From positions 1-64,000 of the forward strand of contig JALAGF010005345.1 of the NCBI GenBank assembly GCA_030167865.1: a DNA stretch of 64,000 nucleotides. Direction: 5' to 3'. This DNA comes from Craspedostauros australis. Taxonomy: Eukaryota. A program made the translations under genes and the position numbers. Positions 1 to 15,673 of this stretch are shown piece after piece. Numbering within the stretch: position 1 is the first letter of the stretch; every line of letters begins with the position of its first letter. The notes under the pieces are model-generated. The model was given only the letters and a program-made list of their open reading frames with translations, searched no databases and was not told where the DNA came from.

Positions 1-858
1 AGGCGGTGGCAGGTCCACGCGAGCACGAACAAACTCCACCACCTGTTGCATCTGGCGAGTTGGCAGAGCCTCCTGAGGGAGCAAGACACCCCAGAGCGCG
101 GAAGCCACGTTGACCCACACACGTGTTACATTCCACCATGTGTGCCTGTCGCAATTGCAGCCAAGCACGAATCCCTTGGGAGGCATGGAAGTAAACGTGT
201 TGACATCGAAGTGATCCGTGAGCTCCTCCATCACACGAATCACAGCAGGCCGCCTCCAGTTTCCCGCCTCTTCCAGATCGAACCCGAACTGACCTCCTCT
301 CCTGTTCCTGCTGGCACGCGCCCGTTCCTCCTTGCCGTTGTCGTTGTATGTGCTGTCGCTATCGCCAGAGGCATCTGCATAGCCACCAGCAACAACAGTA
401 TTGCAGCGCCGGGCAAGCCTTGCTGGCGGGGTAGGCTCAACGGGCAGAGCAACATCAGCTGCAGCAGGCAGGGGTGGCGCGTTCAAGATAACACTCACCA
501 AAGTTCCATTGCCAACACCTCGTCCCTCGGATCGCACCTTGACGTTGGAGTCGTCGAAGACGCCTCCGTTGTCATCGACGATGTGAACGAACACATGCAG
601 CACGTGAGCGTGCGCATGCGTACCGTTCGGGACGAGGCCGCCATCCGCCGCGAGCATCGGCTTCACATCGATCACTCGCGTGATGGTGGTTGGCTTCCTC
701 AACGCAGCGGACGGCTTGTCAGGCAACAGTTGCTCCGCGGTAGGGAGCAAGTTTCCCTTGGAGTCAACAGGAGGAGCAGATACAGGGTAAGTAGAACGCG
801 GTTTCTTACTGGGGGAGGGATTGGCATCCTTGGCCTTGGCGGTGGTGGAGAGAGGCAT
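1..858 (-). CDS. Unidentified ORF (>=286 aa), runs off the left edge; probably repeat/TE-associated (copy A)
   Basis: The ATG at 858 reads with no stop to position 1 (MPLSTTAKAKDANPSPSKKPRS...VLHVFVHIVDDNGGVFDDSNVKVRS...FVLGCNCDRHTWW...RVDLPPP). It is missing from the ORF track because it has no stop in the window. A second diverged copy keeps the same frame. Confidence 0.5.
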   Translation of the reverse strand, partial: MPLSTTAKAKDANPSPSKKPRSTYPVSAPPVDSKGNLLPTAEQLLPDKPSAALRKPTTITRVIDVKPMLAADGGLVPNGTHAHAHVLHVFVHIVDDNGGVFDDSNVKVRSEGRGVGNGTLVSVILNAPPLPAAADVALPVEPTPPARLARRCNTVVAGGYADASGDSDSTYNDNGKEERARASRNRRGGQFGFDLEEAGNWRRPAVIRVMEELTDHFDVNTFTSMPPKGFVLGCNCDRHTWWNVTRVWVNVASALWGVLLPQEALPTRQMQQVVEFVRARVDLPPP

Positions 859-2932: not shown

Positions 2933-5930
2933 ATGTCTCTCAACAGCAAAAGCGTTGTGGTTGTGGGTTCGCTGAGAGTTCTCATCGCCATCGGCATTGC
3001 CAGCGTCGCCGTCTGCAACAATAAGAATGGACTCGCACCATGCCATGCCTTCAATGCGCCTTTGAGCGCGCGTGGTAACAGACGACAGCAACAGCATCAA
3101 TCATCGCAGCAAAGAACGATGCAAACTGCGACGCAAAGGATGATGGTCTCAACCAGCGATCCAACGTCTTCCGATGGAGTCAAATCGGCCGAAAAGATCA
3201 GCGCGCGACCTTCGTTCCAACCAGAGATCATGCCAGTCACCAAGTACCCCGTGATCCGAGGAACCACCACGGATTCCCGCGAAATCGTTTCGACAGGTGC
3301 TGGCCGTCAGTTTCTCACGGCCGTACGGTTGTCCCATATCCTTTTCGCCACCGAGGACTTGGCACTAGCCAGTTTGCATGAGCTCAAGACGTCCAACATT
3401 GCGTTCGAGGATCTCTCGCGCCAGATCAGCGCCTGTGCTGAAACTCGGGAAGAAGGTGGACAGATCGGCTGGGTGTCCACCAACGATGAGGACGGCACCA
3501 AGAACGAGCATCTCGATCTCGTGTTCCCAAAGGCAGCACGCGAAAAGACCGTGCAGATCACCACCAAGCCCGGAGATATCATCTTTGTTGAGTCCACCCG
3601 TGGCTTCCATCTTGTGCAGGTCGTGGATTGCATGGTCGACGTGCGTCAGATGGCATACGTCAAGGAACGTCGGAACAAGGATGCCTTGGTCGAAAAATCG
3701 CTCAAAAAGACCGGAATCTTCGGCGGCGCTCTCACCGATGGCACCAAGGATCTCTCCTACAAAATCGAAACCATGGGTTGCCAGATGAACAAGGCAGATT
3801 CGGAGCGCATCGAAGGCCAGCTGCAGAGCATCGGCATCAACCCAATCCCGGAAGACGATGAGAAGACCAAGCCCGATGTCGTCGTTCTCAACACGTGCTC
3901 TATCCGCGATCATGCCGAGCAGAAGGTCTACTCCTATCTCGGACCATACGCGAAGCGAAAGCGCAGCGGGGGTGACCTCGCTATCATTGTGGCCGGTTGC
4001 GTTGCACAGCAGGAAGGAGAGAAGCTCTTGCGTCGTGTTCCGGAAATCGACCTCGTCATGGGACCTCAGGTGTGTCATGAAAACAGAGCTTGATGGATGC
4101 ATGGTGTTGTATCTTGAACAGTGAAAAGATGTGGGGGGTGAACGCTGCTTTGTATGTGGCCACTTCCGTCGGTTGTGAAAAAAAGACATCATGTGGGAGA
4201 CTGTTGTGAAACAAACCCTTTCGTGAGATTGCGTAATGCGCCTCCATATCATCCAACAGGAACTCACAATACTCTGCTTTATTGAACTTGATCAACAATT
4301 TCATCAACTCTACATATCATTACCATTTCAACGAACATTGGCTTCTGGAACGAAATTGTAGTACGCCAACCGCATTGCGGATCTTTTGGAGGACGTGTCG
4401 AACGGAAATCAGGTGGTCGCCACGGAAGCAACGCACATCATGGAGGACTCGTCCAAACCAAGGCGTTCCTCCACCATCGCCGCGTGGGTCAATGTCATCT
4501 ATGGTTGCAACGAACGATGCGCCTTCTGCATCGTTCCAACCACCCGTGGAGTGGAACAGTCTCGTCCAGTGGAAAGCATTGTGGAAGAAGTGGAGAATCT
4601 CGTCAAGGCAGGCTTCAAAGAAGTGACACTGTTGGGACAGAATGTCGAGTGAGTATGACAATTCGTGTCCGAATGCAAATCCCTGATGATCGGACAGGCT
4701 ACTTGAAAAGTTTTACCCGTCCCCACAGGCTTCGGTGGACATGGCTTGGAATTGACAATGCCCGCTCACACAATGCAAATTTCCTCTGCCACATTATTCT
4801 TGTGCCGTGTGTTCTATTGCAATGTGCACCCCTTGCCACTCTCACACAAATACAGCGCCTATGGAAGAGACATGGTTCCCAAGAAGAAGTTCTCAGATCT
4901 CCTGCGAACAGTTGGCAGCATCCCAGGCTTAGAACGATTGCGATTCGTTACATCTCATCCAAAGTACATGTCATTAGGAGTCGTCGATGCTGTTGCGGAA
5001 GTGCCAGCGGCGTGTGAGAGCTTCCACATTCCATTCCAAAGTGGATCCACCGAGGTTTTGGCACGCATGGGACGTGGCCATACGCGAGAAAAGTTCCTTC
5101 ACATTGTGAATCGCATCAGACAGGTAAGCATGGCTGGAAGCATGGTACCTCATTCGTACGCGTTGTGTTGCTTCTTGTTGACGGCCAGCAACATTGTGGA
5201 TGCAACGCCGAGTTGCGACAATGCCATTGCACCAGAGCTCGCTATGTGTGCATCGTATACGTGCATCGTATTGGTATCGTACTTCTCTATACTCCTACTT
5301 CGATGAGGAACGAGGAGAGACGATTGCGTGTCGCCTTCGTCGCCCTGGTCGTTGTCCCTGACGCGCGTTACAACGCCTCTGTTTTTTTCTGACTTTGTGC
5401 CACTCCAATCAACTCAAATCAAACCTGCCCGCGCAACTGGCTCGCCGGCTCACATTTTATCAACTGAACCGCACTACCATACACAGCGACTCCCCGATGC
5501 CGCCATCTCTGCTGATGTCATCGTCGGCTTCCCTGGAGAGACCGAGGAGCAGTTCCAAGAAACACTGAGCCTCATGGAGGAGGTCAAGTTCGATGTTGTC
5601 AACACCGCCGCCTACTCCCCCAGGCCCAACACCCCGGCCGCGGATTGGGTTGACCAAGTGCCGGATGATGTCAAGCATGATCGATTGCTGCGCATCAATG
5701 TGCTCGTGAAGGAGCACGCCAGGGAACGACGCGCCCGGATGCAGGGCAGGACCGTGGAAGTTCTGATCGAGAAGCGCAACGTCCGCAAGCCAACGCAAGT
5801 GCTCGGGAGGACAAGGCATGGATACGTCACCTACTGCGACGGTGACATCGACGAGCTGCATGGCAAGACCGTTAAAGTCCTCATCGAAACTTGCGAGACC
5901 TTCTGTCTCGTTGGAAGGATCGTGGATTGA
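2933..5930 (+). CDS. miaB: Plastid-targeted tRNA-2-methylthio-N6-dimethylallyladenosine synthase (MiaB, radical SAM methylthiotransferase) with an N-terminal parvulin/PpiC domain
   Basis: Exons 2933-4069, 4362-4648, 4856-5123, 5487-5930 (GT-AG introns, frame restored: GPQ|YANR, QNVD|AYG, RQ|RLPD). MTTase N-domain Cys motifs GCQMN, NTCSIR, AGCVAQ; radical [29 protein letters not shown]-terminal TRAM-like region. Hydrophobic N-terminus followed by CHA-FNAP. Confidence 0.93.
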
Positions 5931-6327
5931 AGGTGCCTACCATCCTATGAATTCCCGAATACTGTGAAAGACTGCTCCATGTTTTCCTTCGCCAAATAAG
6001 GTGTTAGTACCATACGCTTGCAGACCACCAGACAATCGCTTTCATCATATTTTGTTTGGCGTATTAAGACCGTCGCTGAGGCCATCATCGCCTCTCCTCT
6101 CTCTCTCTCTGTATGTGTTGAGATAATGCCAAGCCAACTGCAGCAGGAGTACGTACGAGCTGACAAAAGGAAAAGACCGGGTGGCATGGCGTGTTAAGGC
6201 ATGTTCTCTATGATTTAAGTTTGATTCCTGACATGAAAAGCGAACTGTCTGCTCTCTGCGTACGTAAACTGGAGTCGGAAGAGAGTGTTTTGTATGTCGT
6301 ACTACGAGTATTCATCTCAGCAGAGCA

Positions 6328-8826
6328 TCACAATGCCTGCTTGTTGACGGCCTGGACGTCCCAGTCTGTACCAATGTTAGACAGCTGGCAAAGCGCTGCG
6401 GCCGCAGTGATGGAGTCATGCGCATTTGGCTTGCCATCTGTTATCGTTTGGAGTCGAGCATTGGCATTCATTTGACGAGAATAGGCAGATGTGGGGTTGG
6501 CGCGAGTAGTATCAAGACGAAAATTGCGGATGAAAGGAGAGAAGATGGGGTGTGAGGATCAGCAAGTATGATGAATTGGAAGCGAGGAACATGCTGGACG
6601 ACCTTGCAATACAAACCTTGGACTTCACTGCCCGGTTTCGATGCAAAGCAATCAATCGATCTGGGAATTGTAGCAGAAATATAGATCAAGGGAAGAGGTC
6701 GATGCCGTGCATGGTATAGATCGTACATACCTGGCTTTGGCGCAATCGCTTTTAGCTTCTTGCGTTTGGCCGCCGCGCTGGTTGAGCCTTTGCCCCTGCC
6801 AGTGCCGGTAGCTGACATTGGCGGGTAGCCTCTAGACTCTCTCTGCTTGGCAGCCTGTTGCAAAAGCGCATCGAGTATGTTGCTGTTCTCTTCCAGCCGG
6901 CGGAATACATTTTCACCATTCTCTGCTCGCTTCAACACCTTCTGAGCATGGCTCTTGATTTGTACCAGCGATCTGTAGGACAGCGGGTGAATGCGCGTGA
7001 TTTGTTCATCGCAAGGCAGGAGAAATCATACGAATGGAGAATGCGGAGCACACATGACACAAAGTAGAACACAAGGATGAGGGCAGCGCATCGCAGAAAG
7101 TATGATGCGAAGATGGGGTAACAGGCGGGGTGAGTCTGTGACCGATGAAGAAAGTGGAGCAAGCAATGGTGCACTGGAAAAGAACTTTTGCTTTCCTTTT
7201 CGATGACATGACATGACTTGATATGACGACAAGGAAGAGCTGAACCGGGGGATGCACCGAGCGCGAAGGAGGCCAAGCATTCCATGCTGTGCAGTTCTCG
7301 TACCTGTAAGGCAAATACACGCTCATTTTCTTCCAGCGTCCCTTCCCGAAGCGTTTGAGGCCGTAGAGGAAGAGCACCTTCTCATCAGGCGTCCAACGCC
7401 CCTGTCGGTACACCAACGTTCGTGCATGTGATGCGGCACTAGTTGCAGGTTGTCTGGCGACCGCCAATGATGCTTGGGCCACCGGGGCGATGACAAGGGG
7501 TGCACCAGCTGAGCTACTCACAGCTGCTGCTGCTGGTGTTGGTGTGGTTGTTGCTGCTGGTGTCGCCAAGTGAGTTGGTGTGGGTGTTGTCAGTATATGA
7601 GCAGAGGTAGCAGCTTGGGGCTTTGGTGCGGCTGTGCCCTGCGGTGCTTGCGCAGTCTGCGCTGCCATCGGTAATCGTTGCGTTCTCTGTTTGGGAGCCG
7701 TTATGGTAGCAGCGATGGTTGGCGGAGTTGGTGGTGGTGCGACCGATGCTGCTATGACTGCGGTGTGCGGTTGGAACGGTGTCGTTGGTTGGTGTGTTGG
7801 TAGCAGCGGTGGGACCAGCGCTACTGGGTGGGATGCTTGCATCGTTGGTGGTGGAATAGCGGCGCCATACGCGTGTGGCTGTGTTTGTGCCTGTACCTGT
7901 GCTTGTGTTTGTGCTTGTGGGAAGGTTGTGGCTGGTGATGTGATGGCAACCGAATGTGTTGTCATGGGCATGACAGTTGGTGCAGGGGATGCTTGTGCTG
8001 CAGGCGTCGTAATCGTATGCAGAGCAGGTGGAAGTGTTGTTGTCGCCGCTTGTGTTGGGACTGCGGTGCTCATCGTGAAGACTGGGAGAGGTGCTGGTGC
8101 TGCTGTTGTTGCTGCCGTTGGTGTCGCTACTGCTGGAACTGGCACCCCCATTGTTCCCGGTGGCATTGCTGTTGCCAGAGTCGATCTCATGGTGGAAGTT
8201 GGTGTCAGTGCCTGTGGAGTGTGCACTGTTGGCATTGGGATGGTTGTGTTGGAAGATGTTGGTGGGGTCATCTGTGCTGGGGCTGTGGCTGCTGCTGCTG
8301 CTGTCGTCACTGGTGTCGTTGCAGCCATCATTGTTGTTGCCGTAGCTGTTGCGGGTGTCGTTGCAGTTGTGGTCGTCGTTGCCATGGTGGGGGCGATGGT
8401 TGATGATACACGAGTTGGTGTGGGTGTGGGCACAGGTGGCGTTGCAATCGGGGCTACCATGGGTGGGACAGGAGCTGCAGCTGTGGCTGCTCCTGCTGCG
8501 GTCGCATGCGTCGTAACCAGCGCAGGAGCAGGTGGTGTTGCAGCCATGGTTACTTGTGGGACGAAGTGCGCAGGCTGGGCGTGGACTTGCGGTTGAGGCG
8601 GCACCATCTGTTGTGCTTGAGGTGAGGTGGTTGGTGTTGTAGTCGATGCTGTCAATGCTGCCTGTGCAGCGGACGGTGCAGTGAATGGGGTCGGCGGTGC
8701 TGGAGCTGGGGTTGCAATGGCGATGGGCACGGCCTTGGGAATGCTGACGGTTGGACCTCCAGCGGCGAGAAGGCTGCTTGGGTCTTGCTGTGGCACCATG
8801 GTGGTCACGGTGGTCGGGGTTGTCAT
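6328..8826 (-). CDS. Single-repeat MYB (SHAQKY-like) transcription factor with a long T/A/P/Q-rich N-terminus
   Basis: Exons 8826-7304, 6972-6731, 6437-6328. Spliced domain GRWTPDEKVLFLYGLKRFGKGRWKKMSVYLPYR|SLVQIKSHAQKV. NLS-like KRKKLK; last exon ...AAAALCQLS...QAL*. The start codon is uncertain. Confidence 0.88.
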
Positions 8827-10933
8827 GATGATGCACGTCAATTAGATGCGCTTTGGTTCCGGACAGTGGCTGAGTATGAGTATGAGTCTGTTATCCTTGG
8901 AGGACTCGTACTCTGCTCTAGAAATGATGTCACTGTTTTCAGAGTCCTGCTCTATTTCTCCAGTATTCTCTCTCTCTCTCTCTCTGCTTCACGTGCGCTC
9001 TGCGACAGATAGACGCAAGAGGTGGATTATACTGCTACACTACGACACTCTGCTCAACTCTACTCTATAAGGTCGTGCTCGTGGGTGTTGTGATCTGCTC
9101 GTCATGTAGTTCGGCGTTCTGTCTGTGAGTGATGTCAATGTTGTGGACGTTGTGGATGTTTCCTCCCCGAAGTTTGGTTGATGGGGTGATGCAGCGATTG
9201 TGGCGGCGAGAACGAACAGAGTGAGATGATGATGGTAAGGATACGATTGGCCTTCGGTGTTTGGCCCCTGCTGCCTCAGCGGAAGGTATCTTTTTGTGGT
9301 CGTGAGGCACCCTCACACAAACACACGCGCACACGCAGCGCAAACGCCGGCACACATCGACGCGAGGCGGAAACTTCGCATGCGGGGTTCGTGCGAGTAA
9401 CTTCGAGAGGTATCCAGGCCACGTATCGACTGGCAGTGTGGTAGTCGTACAAAAGCATGGACGGAGCGCGAGCCACGGTACTTGAGCACTGTTGTTGACT
9501 CGTAGTCGTACGTCGTGGGCCACCAAAATGCACGAGAAGGAACGATGCGAAGGAGAGGACAGACGGTGCTCTTTCCGCCGTGCGTCTCAGGATGGAGCAA
9601 TGCTCCACGCACACGTGGGCTACAGTAGTCGATGCTACGCGAAGCACAAAGCAGCTCCCAAAAGAAGAACGACGAAAGGCGCAGACGACCCAATCAAACG
9701 CACACACATGGCTCTTCTTTCGTTCCACCCCGTCCGTCCGTTGATCACGCCGTGCGAGCATGTCATGGCACACACATGGAAATGACGTAAGCCGACATGT
9801 CCGATGCGACATGATACAATCAAAAATGACGAATGGGAGCCACCAACCGAAGCGGTTCTGCGCGATTGACGTGGAATGAAGCGATTGGCTGGCGTGGCAA
9901 CAAAACAGCAGAAGGTATCCAAGCCATCACGAATGGTCGGTTGGGTCGACTGGTTGAGAACATGCATAGCGTTTAATTGGATCACGATCATGAATGGATG
10001 CCGACAACGATTGACAAAATCAAAACGACGAAGCCAACAAACAAGCGAACGACCAAAGCGGAGACACGAAAGAGGGTGGTTCGTGTTGTCGTGATTGCTG
10101 CGGTTTTGGCTGCGGTTGCGATTGTGGCTGCAACAACTGCGCCATCGTGGTGGGAGAGTTTCAGAACCTTGGTGATCACTGTCATCGGTATCATCCACAG
10201 GAGCACAATTCTTGCCAAGAGAGGCTTTCACTCGGGAGAAGCGACATCGAAAAGACAGGGGCTGGAGGAGACAGACATAGACGAAGAGAGAGAGAGAGCC
10301 CAACACAGCCGCAAGCACATCGATAGAGCAACCGTCGCAGCGAGAGACGCAGACCCAGGGAAGAAAAGGGGAGACTTCGCGAAGATCCGTCTGAAGCGCA
10401 AAGGTGTGTCGAAGCTCCATTCCGATCCAACCAAGAGAAGGCTTGATGCTATTTTTGCGCCGCATTGAACGCTTCTCGAAGAAACGAGCGCATGATGGGC
10501 GACTTGCGCTGAGAGAATCTGGGAATCATTTTTGACGACTGACGCTCGGATGCCTCTTGAAATTGAAACAATAACGAGATGGGAGATTGCAGCATTGCAC
10601 TTTCCGTGGCTCTTCCGACAGTGGACATGCAGGGTCATGCACATGCATGCACATACAGGCACACAAATGCACGGAGTCTTCTTGGATACAGCACGTCTCA
10701 CACACATATCCGTACAGTGCAGGAAGAGCGCGGCCATGCCAAACACCATCGCGTTGGCAATCGCAATCACATGACACCCGCATTGCATTCACTTACAATA
10801 CTTGCTGCATTCGCCACACTTGCTACGAGCACATTCATCACTTCCACATCCAATCCAATCCAACACGGGATCTGACAGCTGCCCCAAATCCTGAGCGAGC
10901 GCAAGCCAGCAGTATCGATATCGACGTCCCAAA

Positions 10934-13900
10934 ATGGATCAAAGCAAAGCAACCAAGCCAGAAGAGAGGCAGGAGGAGGAAGGGGAGATCGCAGTGCCAA
11001 TGGCAACGGACGACGGGGACAGCAAAGCCGCTGCAGCAGGGGGAGTCGCAGCCGGCACTGAGAAAAAGAGTGCGGATGCCAAACCGGCAACAATGACGGA
11101 AGCAACACCAGCATCGGCAACAACCGACGGAGATACCAACACCAACGCCACAGCCAAAGCAGCGGAAACTGCGACCGCAAAAGAGACTGCAACCGAACCT
11201 ACCAAAACTATTGTGAAAGAGGAGACCAAGACGGTGGCTGAGGCTTCTGCGACTGTGAGCGGTGATACAAGTGCTGCTGCTCCTACAACGACTACTGCCA
11301 CTGCCACGACGCCTCCTGTTGCTCTTGCAGACGCTACCAGTGTCAAAGACCAGCCTTCGGATAGCAACAATGTTGCGGAAAAGGCAACACCAACGGCAAC
11401 CGACTCGAGGTCATCCGCAACTGCCAAGGACGCTCCCAAACCAATGGAAGTTGATGACAATGCAAAACCTACCACCAATACAGACACAAACGCACCTGCA
11501 AGTACAACAGCAACAGCACCTGTGATCAAGACTGAACCAGTAGCAACGACTGCGACAAAAGCTGAAACCACTACCAGTACGAGTGGCGGTGCGAACCCCA
11601 CTCCTCCATCCAATACTGACGAGACGCAATCTGCATCAACAGAGCCACCAGCAAAGTCACCGGTGAAAGCAGAAGCAACGCCGACACCAACGGACGCAGC
11701 ACAGGACAAGACCTCAAATGCTGATAGTGCAGAGGCAACCAAGGCAGCAGACGCCACCGACAAGCCAAGTGCCCAACCGAAGGAAGAGCCGAAGGATGAT
11801 GCAAAGGCACCAGCCGATAAACCGGCAGCTGCAACTCCTGAAGCGAAGGCCACAAACACTCCAGAAAGCGAAGCGAAGGAAGAGAAGGGAGATGAAGCAC
11901 CACAAGTACCAGCACCACCCACAACTGCTGCTGAGTCCACAACTGACACCACGATTACGACAACGACTAAAAGCAAAGCTGAGACCCTTGATTCCAAAAT
12001 GACGGTTCCCGCGGCTTCTGACAAAAAGAACGACACGAGCACTGCGACAACATCAGCTTCTCAAGATGGCACTGCCAAAACCAAAGTCAAGGACGAGAGC
12101 AAAGACGAAGCCACCGGCAAGGTCGCAGAGAAGGTGAATGGTGAGATGAAGGACCAGGAAATGAAAGAGAGCGAAGAAGCGCCCAAGAAGACGACGGCTG
12201 AGGAATCTGCCGTTAAGGACGACACAGACGATGCCATGCAGGTCGACAAACCCCCAGCTGACACCAAACTGGAATCCACGGAAGCAACCAAAACTCAGTC
12301 TGTGAAGACACCACACAATGGTCCGAAGAAGGATTCTTCTGGGGGAGATGCCGCTGATAAACCTGCCACGGGATCAAGCGAGGCTACAACTACGGCCGCT
12401 GCGAAGGAGAAAAAGGCAGAAAGCCCCGCTGAGGCCAAAGCAACGCCTGAACGAAATCCGCCAACCGGTGGGCCCAAAATCAAGCTGGAGGCAAAGGCAG
12501 ACAAGGCAACTTCCAACAAGCCAACAACGAAGATGGAAGAATCAGCTTCGAAGCAGAAGAAAAAGAAGCCTGAACCAAAGAATCAGGATACCGCCTCCAG
12601 CAAAGCCAAATCGGAACCCACTGAAGCTGCGCGAAGCAAAACGGGATCACCCTCCGCACCATCACCAAAGACAAGCAAAGAAGCAGGAAAAGGTGGAGAA
12701 GCCACTGCGATGGACACTGACGAAGTTGTTGACTCCACTCCGCCAGCCTCTGCTGCAGGTGCAGGTGCTGTGACAACAGCTGGTGCTGATTCCAACGAGG
12801 ATCCAAAATCTGAGACTGCCAGTGGCAAATCAGAACTCGCCTACAGTACCAGAGGCAGAACAACGACAACATCATCAGCGACCTCTTCTGTTGCTGGTGC
12901 TGAAGGAACCAAGGCATCAACAAACAACCACGCAAACGAGAAGGGCGACCGCCGTGGTGGTGGAAGGGATACCCACACAGATGATGCTGCTCGGTCGGCA
13001 GAACCAACTCCGGCCCCCATGGGTGCATTCTTGGATTCGCTCAACGAAGAGGAGAGACGCACGCGAACGAGATTCTTGCCTGATGTTGATGGCATGCGCG
13101 CGCTGAGGAAGAGCGAGGTCAAGGATGATCTCGCGCTTGCGCGAGTGTTGATGGGGAGTGACGGGCAGCGCCGACCGAAGCTGAAGAAGATGAAGCCCAC
13201 GGAGATTCCCGATGGCATGCAGGTTGAAGGCGAAGAGAGTCCTCCCACTTCGGAGGCAGAGTCTGACGTCGTGCGACCCGACACCTCCACCGTCAATCTT
13301 GGCATCCGTGAGCTCCTCGTTCCCTCGAAGGCTTTCGTCCCGCCGCCCGCTCTCATCCAAGGCGATAGCGTAGACATCATGGAAGGCACCGTGGACGAGA
13401 TCAGCGGAGCCGACGTCATCCCACCATCCATTGTGGAGTCGATCACCGCATTCAATCCGCCGAGACCGCCCGAATCCGTTGGGACGAAAAAGAAGCATCG
13501 CATGCTGAGATGGGAGAGACGGCCACAGGATGTCGAGCTCGATCTTCGCAACTACAGAAAGACGGTGCAACGGACGCGTCATGAATTCGGCAAGGCGACC
13601 ATTCAGAAGCAACGGTTGGAGACCCTCAATGCTCACTTGCGACGTCACTTCCTCAGCCATCTCAATTATTTGAACGAGGAGTATCATCTCCTCAATTCCG
13701 AGTACGGTTCGGTGCAAGAAGAATGCGTCAAGCTCATGAAAGAAATGAACGCAGCTTCCGCACAGGCTGACAAGATCGGATCTGACAGCAGAAGTATCAT
13801 GGCTGATACGATGATCGCATTGAAGAACCAGGGCGACCAAATGAGCAAGCAGAAGGCCACCGATTTGCAGGCGAAGAAGGCAGCGAAGTCGATCAAATCA

Positions 13901-15673
13901 CAAGTGCATCCGAACAAGGCTGGTCTTGGAGGGTTGACTCATGGCGCCTTCCGTGACTGGAGCCGCAACTCCAAGTTCGCGAACGCAGCCCTGTCCAACG
14001 GCTGGGTGCTGCCTGGTGACAGGGTCCAAACTCCCTTTGGTGACGGCAAAGTCATCCGAATCGACTTCCCCAAGTTGGCAGACGGAGAAAACAATGGTCA
14101 TACGAACGGAAATGACATGCCACAAGGTCGTAATGGGTGGGACGCAGCGTCGGAGACATGGGATGTCACCCCTCCCCGAATCGCCGTTGCCTTGAACCAT
14201 GGCACTGGGTACTTCCCATCGAAATCGATCACGTTGAAAGACCACCCCATGTCGCTCTCGGATCCGTTGCTTGTGAAACGGTGGGACCTACTTGTGGAGA
14301 TGGCACAGACCATGGGACCGAGCCTCGACATCGAGGGGATCCAAACCGCTGTGAAAGGACTTAAATCCAGTCTGGGGCCGTCCGATTCAAAAGCAGCCAT
14401 GCCCAAGGTTGATGCCAAGGCTCCTGCTGCAGCAGCTGCTAGTGTTGCGAGTGATGGTGGTGATGCATCACCTTCTGCGGCTGCCAAGATCACTGAAACG
14501 AATGAGAGTAGTATCACCGATGGTGCAGTCGGTCCTCACAGCGACGCCAAGACTGCGGCTGTCACTGCGACGACAGCGACTACTACTACTACTACTACTG
14601 CAGCTATCAAGATGGAGACCGATGATGTCAAGGGTCAACCAACCAAGGACGTGGTAGCAGGCGCAGATGCAGATGCAGATGCGATCAACGGGGAGGAAGA
14701 CAAGTCGGAAGGTCCATTCCGGCATTCCAAGAACATCTACCTGCCATACGGAGCTGGCCTTTTGCCTACGAGAGCCGGAAGAGGCGTGCATCTGGACAAG
14801 ATCAAGATGGAAGAAGTGGAGAAGGCAGTGCAGGATGCTCTGTTCGATGGGGAAGGTGTCCTCGGCACGGTAAGTGTTGCTGTTGCTGATGCTGTCACGA
14901 GTGCATCTGCGCATGATATGCGCGAACTTGCTGTGATCACACTGATAATAGGCTCCATGCATGAGCGCGGCATGATGCGGTGCAAGCAGAGTAAAGTGAG
15001 GGAATATGCACACACACACACGGCTCACGCATCAATCTGAATTCTTCCTGTGGTCGACGTTGACATCAACATCGACATCATGTTGGTGCTGTGACCAACA
15101 ATTGTTGCGATACTTGTGCAGAAATCCAACATGGGAGTGACGGCCGAAATCCGAGAGCTGGAGGACCGCTCTCAGGAGTATGCGACATTGATGGCCGAAG
15201 TATCCCAGCAACGCAACGCTCTGTTCCGTCAACGGCGAATTCGCACGTTGAATGAACGCACCCACGCAGCCACGACGGAACGCGCCGCGCGTATCGAAGG
15301 TTTGGTGGAGGAGATGCGGTCTGACCTGAACAGCTTGAAACGCAGATTGGACGATGAGCTCACAGAGCTGGGAATCTCGCAGGGATCCGTGAATGCCATC
15401 CTCACGAAGCATTACGAGACGAAGCATCCCGACATTTTCAAGGCTCTTGGCACAGCAGCCGCAGTCGTGCAACAAGGAGACAGCAAACGGCAGAAGGTAT
15501 CAGATGCGCCAAACAAGGAGGAAGAGAGCGGTGGCGGCGGTGCTGCCAAGGCCGCCTCGGAAACCACCGATATGGCGGTAGACGCTGACAGCAACACCAA
15601 CAAGAGCAAGAGCGAAGCCGGAACACCAGCAGCGACGGAGGCGACTGCCAAGGCAGTCCAAAGCGCTGCATGA
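10934..15673 (+). CDS. Large hypothetical protein (~1500 aa): ~700-aa disordered A/T/K/E/P/S N-terminus, coiled coils, SH3/KOW-like motif
   Basis: Exons 10934-14869 and 15122-15673 (acg|gtaagt ... gtgcag|aaa). Long open frame; ordered-looking blocks such as FNPPRPPESVGTKKKHRMLRWERRP and PGDRVQTPFGDGKV; no signal peptide. Confidence 0.8.

Follow-up and report, generated by a model that had tools for sequence, protein, structure and literature searches.

The stretch of DNA analysed here, referred to below as the window, comprises the first 64,000 nucleotides of contig JALAGF010005345.1 from Craspedostauros australis, and at positions 2933-5930 of its forward strand it contains a nuclear gene in which a parvulin domain, a peptidylprolyl isomerase (PPIase) of the PpiC type, is joined in frame to the tRNA methylthiotransferase MiaB. 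The gene starts with an ATG at 2933, ends with a stop codon at 5928-5930, and consists of four exons separated by three introns of 292, 207 and 363 nucleotides, all of which begin with GT and end with AG. The spliced frame contains 2136 coding bases and a single terminal stop. It is close to certain that its product is one polypeptide of 711 amino acids which carries, in this order, a putative plastid presequence, a complete parvulin domain with a His-Cys-Ser-His set of catalytic residues, a flexible basic linker and a full MiaB of cyanobacterial descent, and that this architecture had a single origin.

Gene structure and domain content

The frame that opens at 2933 is free of stops through 4069, the end of exon 1. 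At the exon junctions splicing rebuilds stretches which are continuous in homologues (Table 1). In the 3' half of the gene the model can also be compared with contigs of one public sequencing run, which is presumed to be RNA and which contains 0.17 of the words searched. One of these contigs joins positions 5119/5483 (a cut which, moved by +4, is 5123/5487), omits 363 nucleotides and is otherwise identical to the window; the 3' half of the gene is transcribed and spliced as modelled. A fused message exists in other species, because complete MMETSP transcripts from them encode the fused open reading frame (ORF). An antisense ORF of 307 amino acids at 3365-4291 was also considered; it has no Pfam match and was taken to be a shadow of the coding strand.

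A domain search made exon by exon against Pfam, with the curated gathering scores as cut-offs, identified two parvulin profiles on exon 1, Rotamase_3 (PF13616) at residues 131-232 (26.9 bits against a cut-off of 22.5, E 7.4e-06) and Rotamase (PF00639) at residues 141-231 (26.8 bits against 21.7), and UPF0004, the N-terminal domain of the methylthiotransferases, downstream of them on the same stop-free exon. Radical_SAM is matched on exons 2 and 3 and TRAM on exon 4 (40.7 bits), and the MiaB part retains these three domains together with both cysteine triads. The three UPF0004 cysteines of such enzymes bind an auxiliary 4Fe-4S cluster, and the two triads correspond to two 4Fe-4S clusters. An earlier, sequence-only reading of this DNA had proposed a fusion in frame within exon 1, with no intron between its two parts, and it is borne out by these matches, as are the coordinates it gave (~3320-3630 for the parvulin segment and ~3758 for the start of the methylthiotransferase, compared with 3323-3628 and 3758 by Pfam), its expectation that Rotamase, UPF0004, Radical_SAM and TRAM would all be matched, the rotamase match it sought at residues ~130-232, which profile and fold model support at residues 131-232, and its observation that both parvulin histidines (H135 and H226) and an S-x-C motif (S166/C168) are retained. 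The residues H135, C168, S221 and H226 are presumably the counterparts of H59, C113, T152 and H157 of Pin1.

Structural comparison leads to the same assignment. A sequence search of the PDB with residues 120-275 gave weak parvulin matches, the best being the borrelial BB0108 domain at an E-value of 0.0045; in the alignment to this domain both histidines match and the cysteine of the window protein stands opposite an aspartate, which is also the residue of the PDB parvulin 8sot_A at the catalytic cysteine position. An AlphaFold2 model of residues 120-256, built with 97 homologues, has a mean predicted local distance difference test score (pLDDT) of 89.8 and a predicted template modelling score of 0.79, with pLDDT falling to 62-68 in the last 17 residues (240-256). 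A Foldseek comparison of this model with the PDB gave 74 matches (E <= 0.001); each of the 45 listed is either a PPIase of the parvulin type or a protein that includes a domain of this type, among them PrsA, BB0108, Par14, SurA, PpiD, NmPin, Pin1, Par10 and Ess1, the best at a probability of 1.00. The assignment to the parvulins is far beyond chance, as the predicted fold resembles parvulins only and the segment by itself retrieves 120 of the 120 long homologues listed; judged from the model and the retained residues, the domain is structurally complete and looks catalytically competent.

The subfamily of the enzyme part was evaluated with NCBIfam, in which the top score of every exon belongs to a model of the MiaB/RimO subfamily. 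TIGR01574, a MiaB model, ranks first of the equivalogs on exons 1, 2 and 4, and on exon 3 another MiaB equivalog, PRK14336, scores one bit higher. When the scores of the separately scored exons are roughly summed, TIGR01574 reaches 382.8 bits (cut-off 355.3), compared with 242.1 for RimO (cut-off 356.95) and 260.7 for MtaB (cut-off 357.05). MiaB enzymes convert i6A37 to ms2i6A37 on tRNA.

Conservation, descent and distribution

The conservation of the individual parts was determined from an alignment of 104 full-length fused proteins, with identities measured against a reference homologue, P0330 (Table 1). Within the parvulin domain six residues are invariant, and the catalytic positions are retained in most of the alignment: the first histidine in 95 of the 104 proteins (replaced by Gln in 5, Tyr in 3 and Leu in 1), the cysteine in 99 (Asp in 3, Asn in 1, Glu in 1), the serine or threonine in 101 and the second histidine in 103. 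Two positions taken to line the proline pocket keep their hydrophobic character. At 0.49 the mean identity of the domain exceeds that of the linker (0.24) and that of the N-terminus (0.16), which indicates that the domain is under purifying selection, though it evolves faster than the enzyme core. In that core the UPF0004 cysteines C231, C271 and C305 (P0330 numbering) are invariant and the radical SAM cysteines C377, C381 and C384 are invariant or nearly so. A short segment just ahead of the parvulin domain also has a higher mean identity, 0.44, than the N-terminus which precedes it (0.16). Its consensus is YPT-x-RG-xx-VDSR-x-I; among the sequences examined, those of diatoms conserve this segment and those of chromerids, brown algae, eustigmatophytes and haptophytes lack it.

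The first 40 codons encode a signal-peptide-like N-terminus, recognized by eye from its hydrophobic stretch, with an Ala39/Phe40 motif that is presumably of the ASAFAP type found in the bipartite plastid presequences of ochrophytes and diatoms. A small residue followed by Phe occurs, again by eye, within the first ~50 residues of 14 out of 14 ochrophyte homologues examined. A stromal location in the plastid is likely because of this presequence motif and the cyanobacterial descent of the MiaB core.

The descent of that core was evaluated using a prokaryote sample obtained by scanning genomes with two peptide patterns from the fused family, from which 80 loci were kept. In tblastn comparisons the core (residues ~220-660 of P0330) is 50-58% identical to cyanobacterial MiaB and 37-43% identical to MiaB of Gastranaerophilales, Clostridia and others. 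A FastTree phylogeny (LG+gamma, 440 columns, midpoint-rooted) was computed from 52 fused cores (every second member of the 104-protein alignment) together with 51 sequences from cyanobacteria and 26 from other bacteria, with mitochondrial-type and other eukaryotic MiaB left out; the fused proteins form a monophyletic clade (0.983) that is sister to the 51 cyanobacterial sequences (0.979). By its position in this tree the MiaB part is of cyanobacterial descent, and this affinity agrees with its assignment to MiaB rather than to RimO or MtaB. None of the 51 MiaB sequences compared from cyanobacteria was found to carry the parvulin domain. For 77 of the 80 loci from prokaryotes the tblastn match begins at P0330 residue 199 or later; of the remaining three, L050 and L074 are incomplete MiaB genes, and L006 reaches residue 148 and has no parvulin match.

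When 5061 candidates were screened for longer proteins related to exon 1, 234 of them reached E <= 0.001. All of the best 120 of these are matched by the parvulin segment alone (local phmmer, E <= 0.001), and 68 of the 120 listed carry a precomputed Rotamase label. The matches listed place the fusion in the diatoms Nitzschia, Pseudo-nitzschia, Epithemia, Seminavis, Mayamaea, Thalassiosira, Cyclotella, Cyclostephanos, Skeletonema and Mediolabrus, in the brown alga Pylaiella, the eustigmatophyte Nannochloropsis and the pelagophyte Aureoumbra, and in the haptophyte Prymnesium and the chromerids Chromera and Vitrella. Three cluster look-ups, whose organism names were of brown algae and pelagophytes only, add the brown algae Cladosiphon and Nemacystus and the pelagophytes Pelagomonas and Aureococcus. 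In a shorter length class there are at least 120 further relatives, all diatom-like and fused and most of them partial gene models, the best being 72% identical. A search of a protein atlas returned diatom MiaB clusters and bacterial PpiC clusters only, and the parvulin region of Vitrella, used as a query aimed at red algae, apicomplexans, dinoflagellates and cryptophytes, matched itself only.

When the parvulin segment alone was compared with 1.84 billion representative sequences, 155 proteins were found at E <= 0.001. The best 150 comprise 47 with MiaB downstream, 87 which end less than 60 residues past the domain and are uninformative on the fusion, and 16 with longer tails. Of these 16, four end in the first MiaB motif (gene models cut at an intron), five are bacterial proteins with multiple parvulin domains, one combines two Rotamase domains with a Rhodanese domain, and six are undecided. 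No close free-standing relative of the domain was found among the 150 matches listed. On the evidence of these searches the fusion arose once and was kept in ochrophytes, haptophytes and chromerids, because the parvulin segment finds almost only fused relatives.

Several other sequences encountered in these searches may be recorded. A more diverged second group with the same parvulin domain (P0113, P0242, P0244, P0245, P0248, P0249 and P0262) combines a signal peptide with a long insertion around the first helix; P0113, P0242 and P0244 continue into MiaB, and P0245, P0248, P0249 and P0262 are incomplete gene models. The protein with two Rotamase domains and one Rhodanese domain, P0265, has 353 amino acids. 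When a profile of the fused domain was scored against nine clearly non-MiaB parvulin proteins, the two highest scores for a single domain, 52.8 and 54.3 bits, came from P0265, and the others gave 10-51 bits, with a PrsA-like protein at 51.0. A Rosetta-stone origin, in which a parvulin gene beside miaB would have been the source of the fusion, was considered and rejected: a parvulin ORF is present in the flanks of 1 of the 80 prokaryote loci and of no cyanobacterial one. That sole case, in a Gastranaerophilales metagenome-assembled genome (L057, 1687-2055, minus strand), is a free-standing and divergently oriented PpiC-type ORF ~950 bases upstream of miaB, which measures 123 amino acids from stop to stop and scores 44.8 bits with the fused-domain profile.

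The fusion is thus a real, conserved and uncharacterised form of a known enzyme. No published description of it was found in the literature searched, whose scope did not extend to subscription journals and supplements. The architecture is widespread rather than peculiar to this locus and is already labelled automatically in databases, as 'Peptidylprolyl isomerase' in UniRef and under a JGI product name which lists UPF0004, Radical SAM and PPIC-type PPIASE. The roles suggested by the sequence-only reading, assistance in Fe-S enzyme folding or in sulfur delivery, are conjectural. Other elements of that reading have held up: the plastid assignment fits the signal peptide with its Ala39/Phe40 motif and the cyanobacterial affinity of the core, the absence of a parvulin domain from canonical MiaB holds for the 51 cyanobacterial sequences compared, and the plant chloroplast parvulin-rhodanese protein STR12 does exist, according to the portion of the source available (PMC8716364).

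Table 1. Positions of the features of the fusion gene in the window, with mean identities to P0330
Feature	Position	Residues	Strand	Mean identity	Remarks
Exon 1	2933-4069		+		379 codons, phase 0, GT donor at 4070; presequence, parvulin domain, linker and UPF0004 in one open frame
Presequence				0.16	
Signal-peptide-like N-terminus with Ala39/Phe40 motif	2933-3052		+		hydrophobic stretch, read by eye
Short conserved segment before parvulin domain	3242-3289	104-119	+	0.44	consensus given in text
Parvulin (PpiC-type rotamase) domain	3323-3628	131-232	+	0.49	Pfam, PDB alignment, fold model, conservation
Catalytic positions of parvulin domain	3335-3337; 3434-3436; 3593-3595; 3608-3610	H135; C168; S221; H226	+		
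Linker	3629-3757	233-275 (43 residues)	+	0.24	basic, poorly conserved, length variable
UPF0004 (MTTase N-terminal)	3758-4063	276-377	+	0.75	Pfam 93.8 bits; first cysteine C283 at 3779-3781
Intron 1	4070-4361		+		292 nt, GT..AG; splicing rebuilds MGPQ/YAN of homologue consensus
Radical SAM				0.73	
Exon 2	4362-4648		+		first part of radical SAM domain; CxxxCxxC at 4506-4529
Intron 2	4649-4855		+		207 nt, GT..AG; splicing rebuilds GQN-V-D-AYGRD as in homologues
Exon 3	4856-5123		+		middle part of radical SAM domain (Pfam, NCBIfam)
Intron 3	5124-5486		+		363 nt, GT..AG; spliced out in RNA-derived contig
Exon 4	5487-5930		+		end of radical SAM domain, TRAM, stop codon (5928-5930)
TRAM	5736-5924		+	0.60	
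3' untranslated region	5931-6030, at least to 6030		+		second contig of same run spans 5693-6030

The surroundings of the gene in the window were also noted. The next gene downstream (6468-8841, minus strand), convergent with the 3' end of the fusion gene, appears to be Myb-like: its ORF at 7006-8841 has a Myb_DNA-binding match just below threshold (23.9 bits against a cut-off of 24.4), and the adjoining ORF at 6468-7025 contains a SHAQK-type stretch. Runs of the dinucleotide CT flank the fusion gene at ~2795-2816, upstream of the start region, and at 6090-6111, downstream of the 3' untranslated region. Runs of N occupy 999-1048, 1830-1879 and 2255-2293, 139 bases in total; the same peptide is encoded on either side of the gap at 1830-1879, which therefore lies within a tandem duplication. 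An open frame of 1381 residues at 10895-15040 on the plus strand has no Pfam match at E <= 0.001.

Possible roles of the parvulin domain

MiaB and the parvulins are each well understood, and their covalent union, conserved together with the active site in the major groups of algae that have red-type plastids, suggests that the two may be functionally coupled. In the explanation favoured here the parvulin domain is a putative active prolyl isomerase or chaperone which works mainly in cis. Once the protein had been imported, unfolded, across four membranes, the tethered domain would speed the folding of the radical-SAM body and so ready MiaB for the insertion of its iron-sulfur (Fe-S) clusters; the MiaB part would, as expected from its family, act in the stroma, converting i6A37 of plastid tRNAs to ms2i6A37. 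Prolyl isomerisation may in this case be what limits an imported radical-SAM enzyme in its folding or in the loading of its Fe-S clusters. A tethered foldase is favoured because the active site is conserved and the linker flexible, because the two parts have stayed joined across wide evolutionary distances, and because of a hint from E. coli, in which MiaB co-purifies with the cyclophilin PpiB and far less with the inactive R43A form (PMC7353009), from which it appears that MiaB can be a PPIase client. The whole explanation, in which the architecture, the function of the MiaB part and a parvulin role in cis are combined, is given an even chance of being correct, and the foldase role by itself is put forward as a tentative preference.

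Several observations weigh against this explanation. PpiB is a cyclophilin, a member of another PPIase family than the parvulin PpiC; bacterial and cyanobacterial MiaB functions without a parvulin domain, with a parvulin ORF near miaB in 1 of 80 loci; and the first histidine is substituted by Gln, Tyr or Leu in 9 of the 104 fused proteins, which suggests that catalysis may be dispensable in some of them. Clade-specific prolines, which might have marked the enzyme as an in-cis substrate, gave no signal (2 positions fused-only, 2 cyanobacteria-only, 10 shared and 1 mixed). Finally, no RNA was seen over the 5' half of the gene, including the parvulin part, in the contigs of the one public run, which cover 5051-6030 only. 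This last observation is also what might be expected if the fusion were an artefact, that is, if two neighbouring genes had been merged by a wrong model or a misassembly, or if the parvulin part were an untranslated leader. An artefact is nonetheless hardly credible, because a single exon encodes both domains in one frame with no stop between them, the same order and spacing recur in 120 of the 120 listed long homologues from genomes and also in transcripts that are complete, and the presumed targeting signal is located upstream of the parvulin segment, so that a MiaB starting downstream of it would be left without a presequence.

The rival explanations which accept the fusion differ in what the parvulin domain would act upon. 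It may be a trans-acting stromal isomerase that serves other plastid proteins, for example components of translation or the ribosome, and owes its place on MiaB solely to the import and expression that the two share; among lineages with red-type plastids it would then fill the place of other plastid parvulins elsewhere. The intact catalytic positions, the canonical fold and a long, flexible and poorly conserved linker, suited to reaching other partners, fit such a role, as does the separate chloroplast parvulin STR12/PAR3 held by plants (PMC8716364, in the portion available), but a housekeeping PPIase would need no lasting tie to one low-abundance enzyme across distant lineages, and no close stand-alone relative of the domain appears among the 150 matches listed from the 1.84 billion representatives, which leaves a role in trans unlikely. 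It is rather improbable that the domain is instead a regulatory or binding module, in which the parvulin fold would bind protein or tRNA, or its cysteine would sense redox state, so that methylthiolation followed photosynthetic redox or Fe-S status. The cysteine is present in 99 of 104 fused proteins, its equivalent in PIN1At of Arabidopsis is redox-sensitive and required for function as far as the accessible text of the source goes (PMC8716364), the domain has been retained in the 9 of 104 proteins which have lost the first histidine, and the linker is basic; the joint conservation of all four catalytic positions, however, is the expectation for an active isomerase, no RNA-binding feature was seen (no dedicated test for one having been made), and nothing ties the protein to redox.

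A sulfur relay, in which the parvulin cysteine would pass persulfide to the auxiliary cluster of MiaB in parallel with STR12, is highly improbable. There would be two independent fusions of parvulins to sulfur-handling plastid enzymes, STR12 and parvulin-MiaB, and the Rotamase-Rhodanese protein P0265 has the best profile scores among the nine non-MiaB parvulins, but its margin over the PrsA-like protein (51.0 bits) is trivial and the comparison set is small and biased, the window gene has no rhodanese domain, and three natural fused sequences have an aspartate at the cysteine position. Nor do we know of any parvulin that has been shown to carry sulfur. The broader conjecture that plastid parvulins are dedicated sulfur or Fe-S partners, with the conserved cysteine gating or feeding the auxiliary cluster of MiaB and with STR12 as a second independent case, is a long shot; if the cluster were gated by the cysteine, plastid tRNA methylthiolation, and hence the decoding of UNN codons, would track redox or sulfur state. 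The tethered foldase remains the preferred reading, and another form of coupling would be the regulation of plastid tRNA methylthiolation through the extra domain. Whichever applies, the fusion serves as an easy marker of the miaB gene in its red-plastid form.

Comparison with known systems

In comparison with bacterial and cyanobacterial MiaB (TIGR01574), the window protein shares both cysteine triads and the succession of UPF0004, radical SAM and TRAM, and differs by a presequence, a parvulin domain and a linker which together place ~275 extra amino acids in front. Its parvulin domain shares Pfam profiles, fold and catalytic positions with PpiC/Par10-type parvulins and with the domains of PrsA, SurA, PpiD and Par14, some parvulins having Asp where the window parvulin has Cys. 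Unlike these parvulins it is covalently joined to an enzyme of another class, shows a variable insertion that separates the GW strand from the next helix, and is so diverged that a plain sequence search finds almost only fused relatives. A WW domain is absent from the window protein, and the Pin1-type phosphate-binding loop is, we assume, absent as well.

Among plastid versions of the enzyme, the apicoplast MiaB of Plasmodium falciparum has been studied as a ferredoxin-dependent Fe-S enzyme (PMC8844926); it is located in a plastid, as the window protein probably is, and its lineage includes the fusion-bearing chromerids. A term search of that paper (PMC8844926) for parvulin, PPIase, rotamase and isomerase gave no hit, and if the domain does persist in apicomplexan parasites it would be an extra feature of an apicoplast enzyme. 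For Chromera, a methylthiotransferase transcript has been assigned a red-algal signal (support 0.53) in a paper which does not mention the parvulin domain.

The closest parallel among the parvulins is Arabidopsis STR12/PAR3, a chloroplast parvulin-rhodanese protein and the chloroplast member of three plant parvulin genes (PMC8716364); a MiaB-linked parvulin is not among the parvulins listed in the portion of that source available. No Rhodanese domain was found by Pfam in any exon of the fusion gene, which makes the latter an analogous fusion and not a member of the STR12/PAR3 type. In both proteins a parvulin domain is joined to an enzyme domain with a link to sulfur, and a plastid destination, established for STR12/PAR3, is likely for the window protein; the difference between them lies in the partner, which is a rhodanese in STR12/PAR3 and a radical-SAM enzyme in the window gene.

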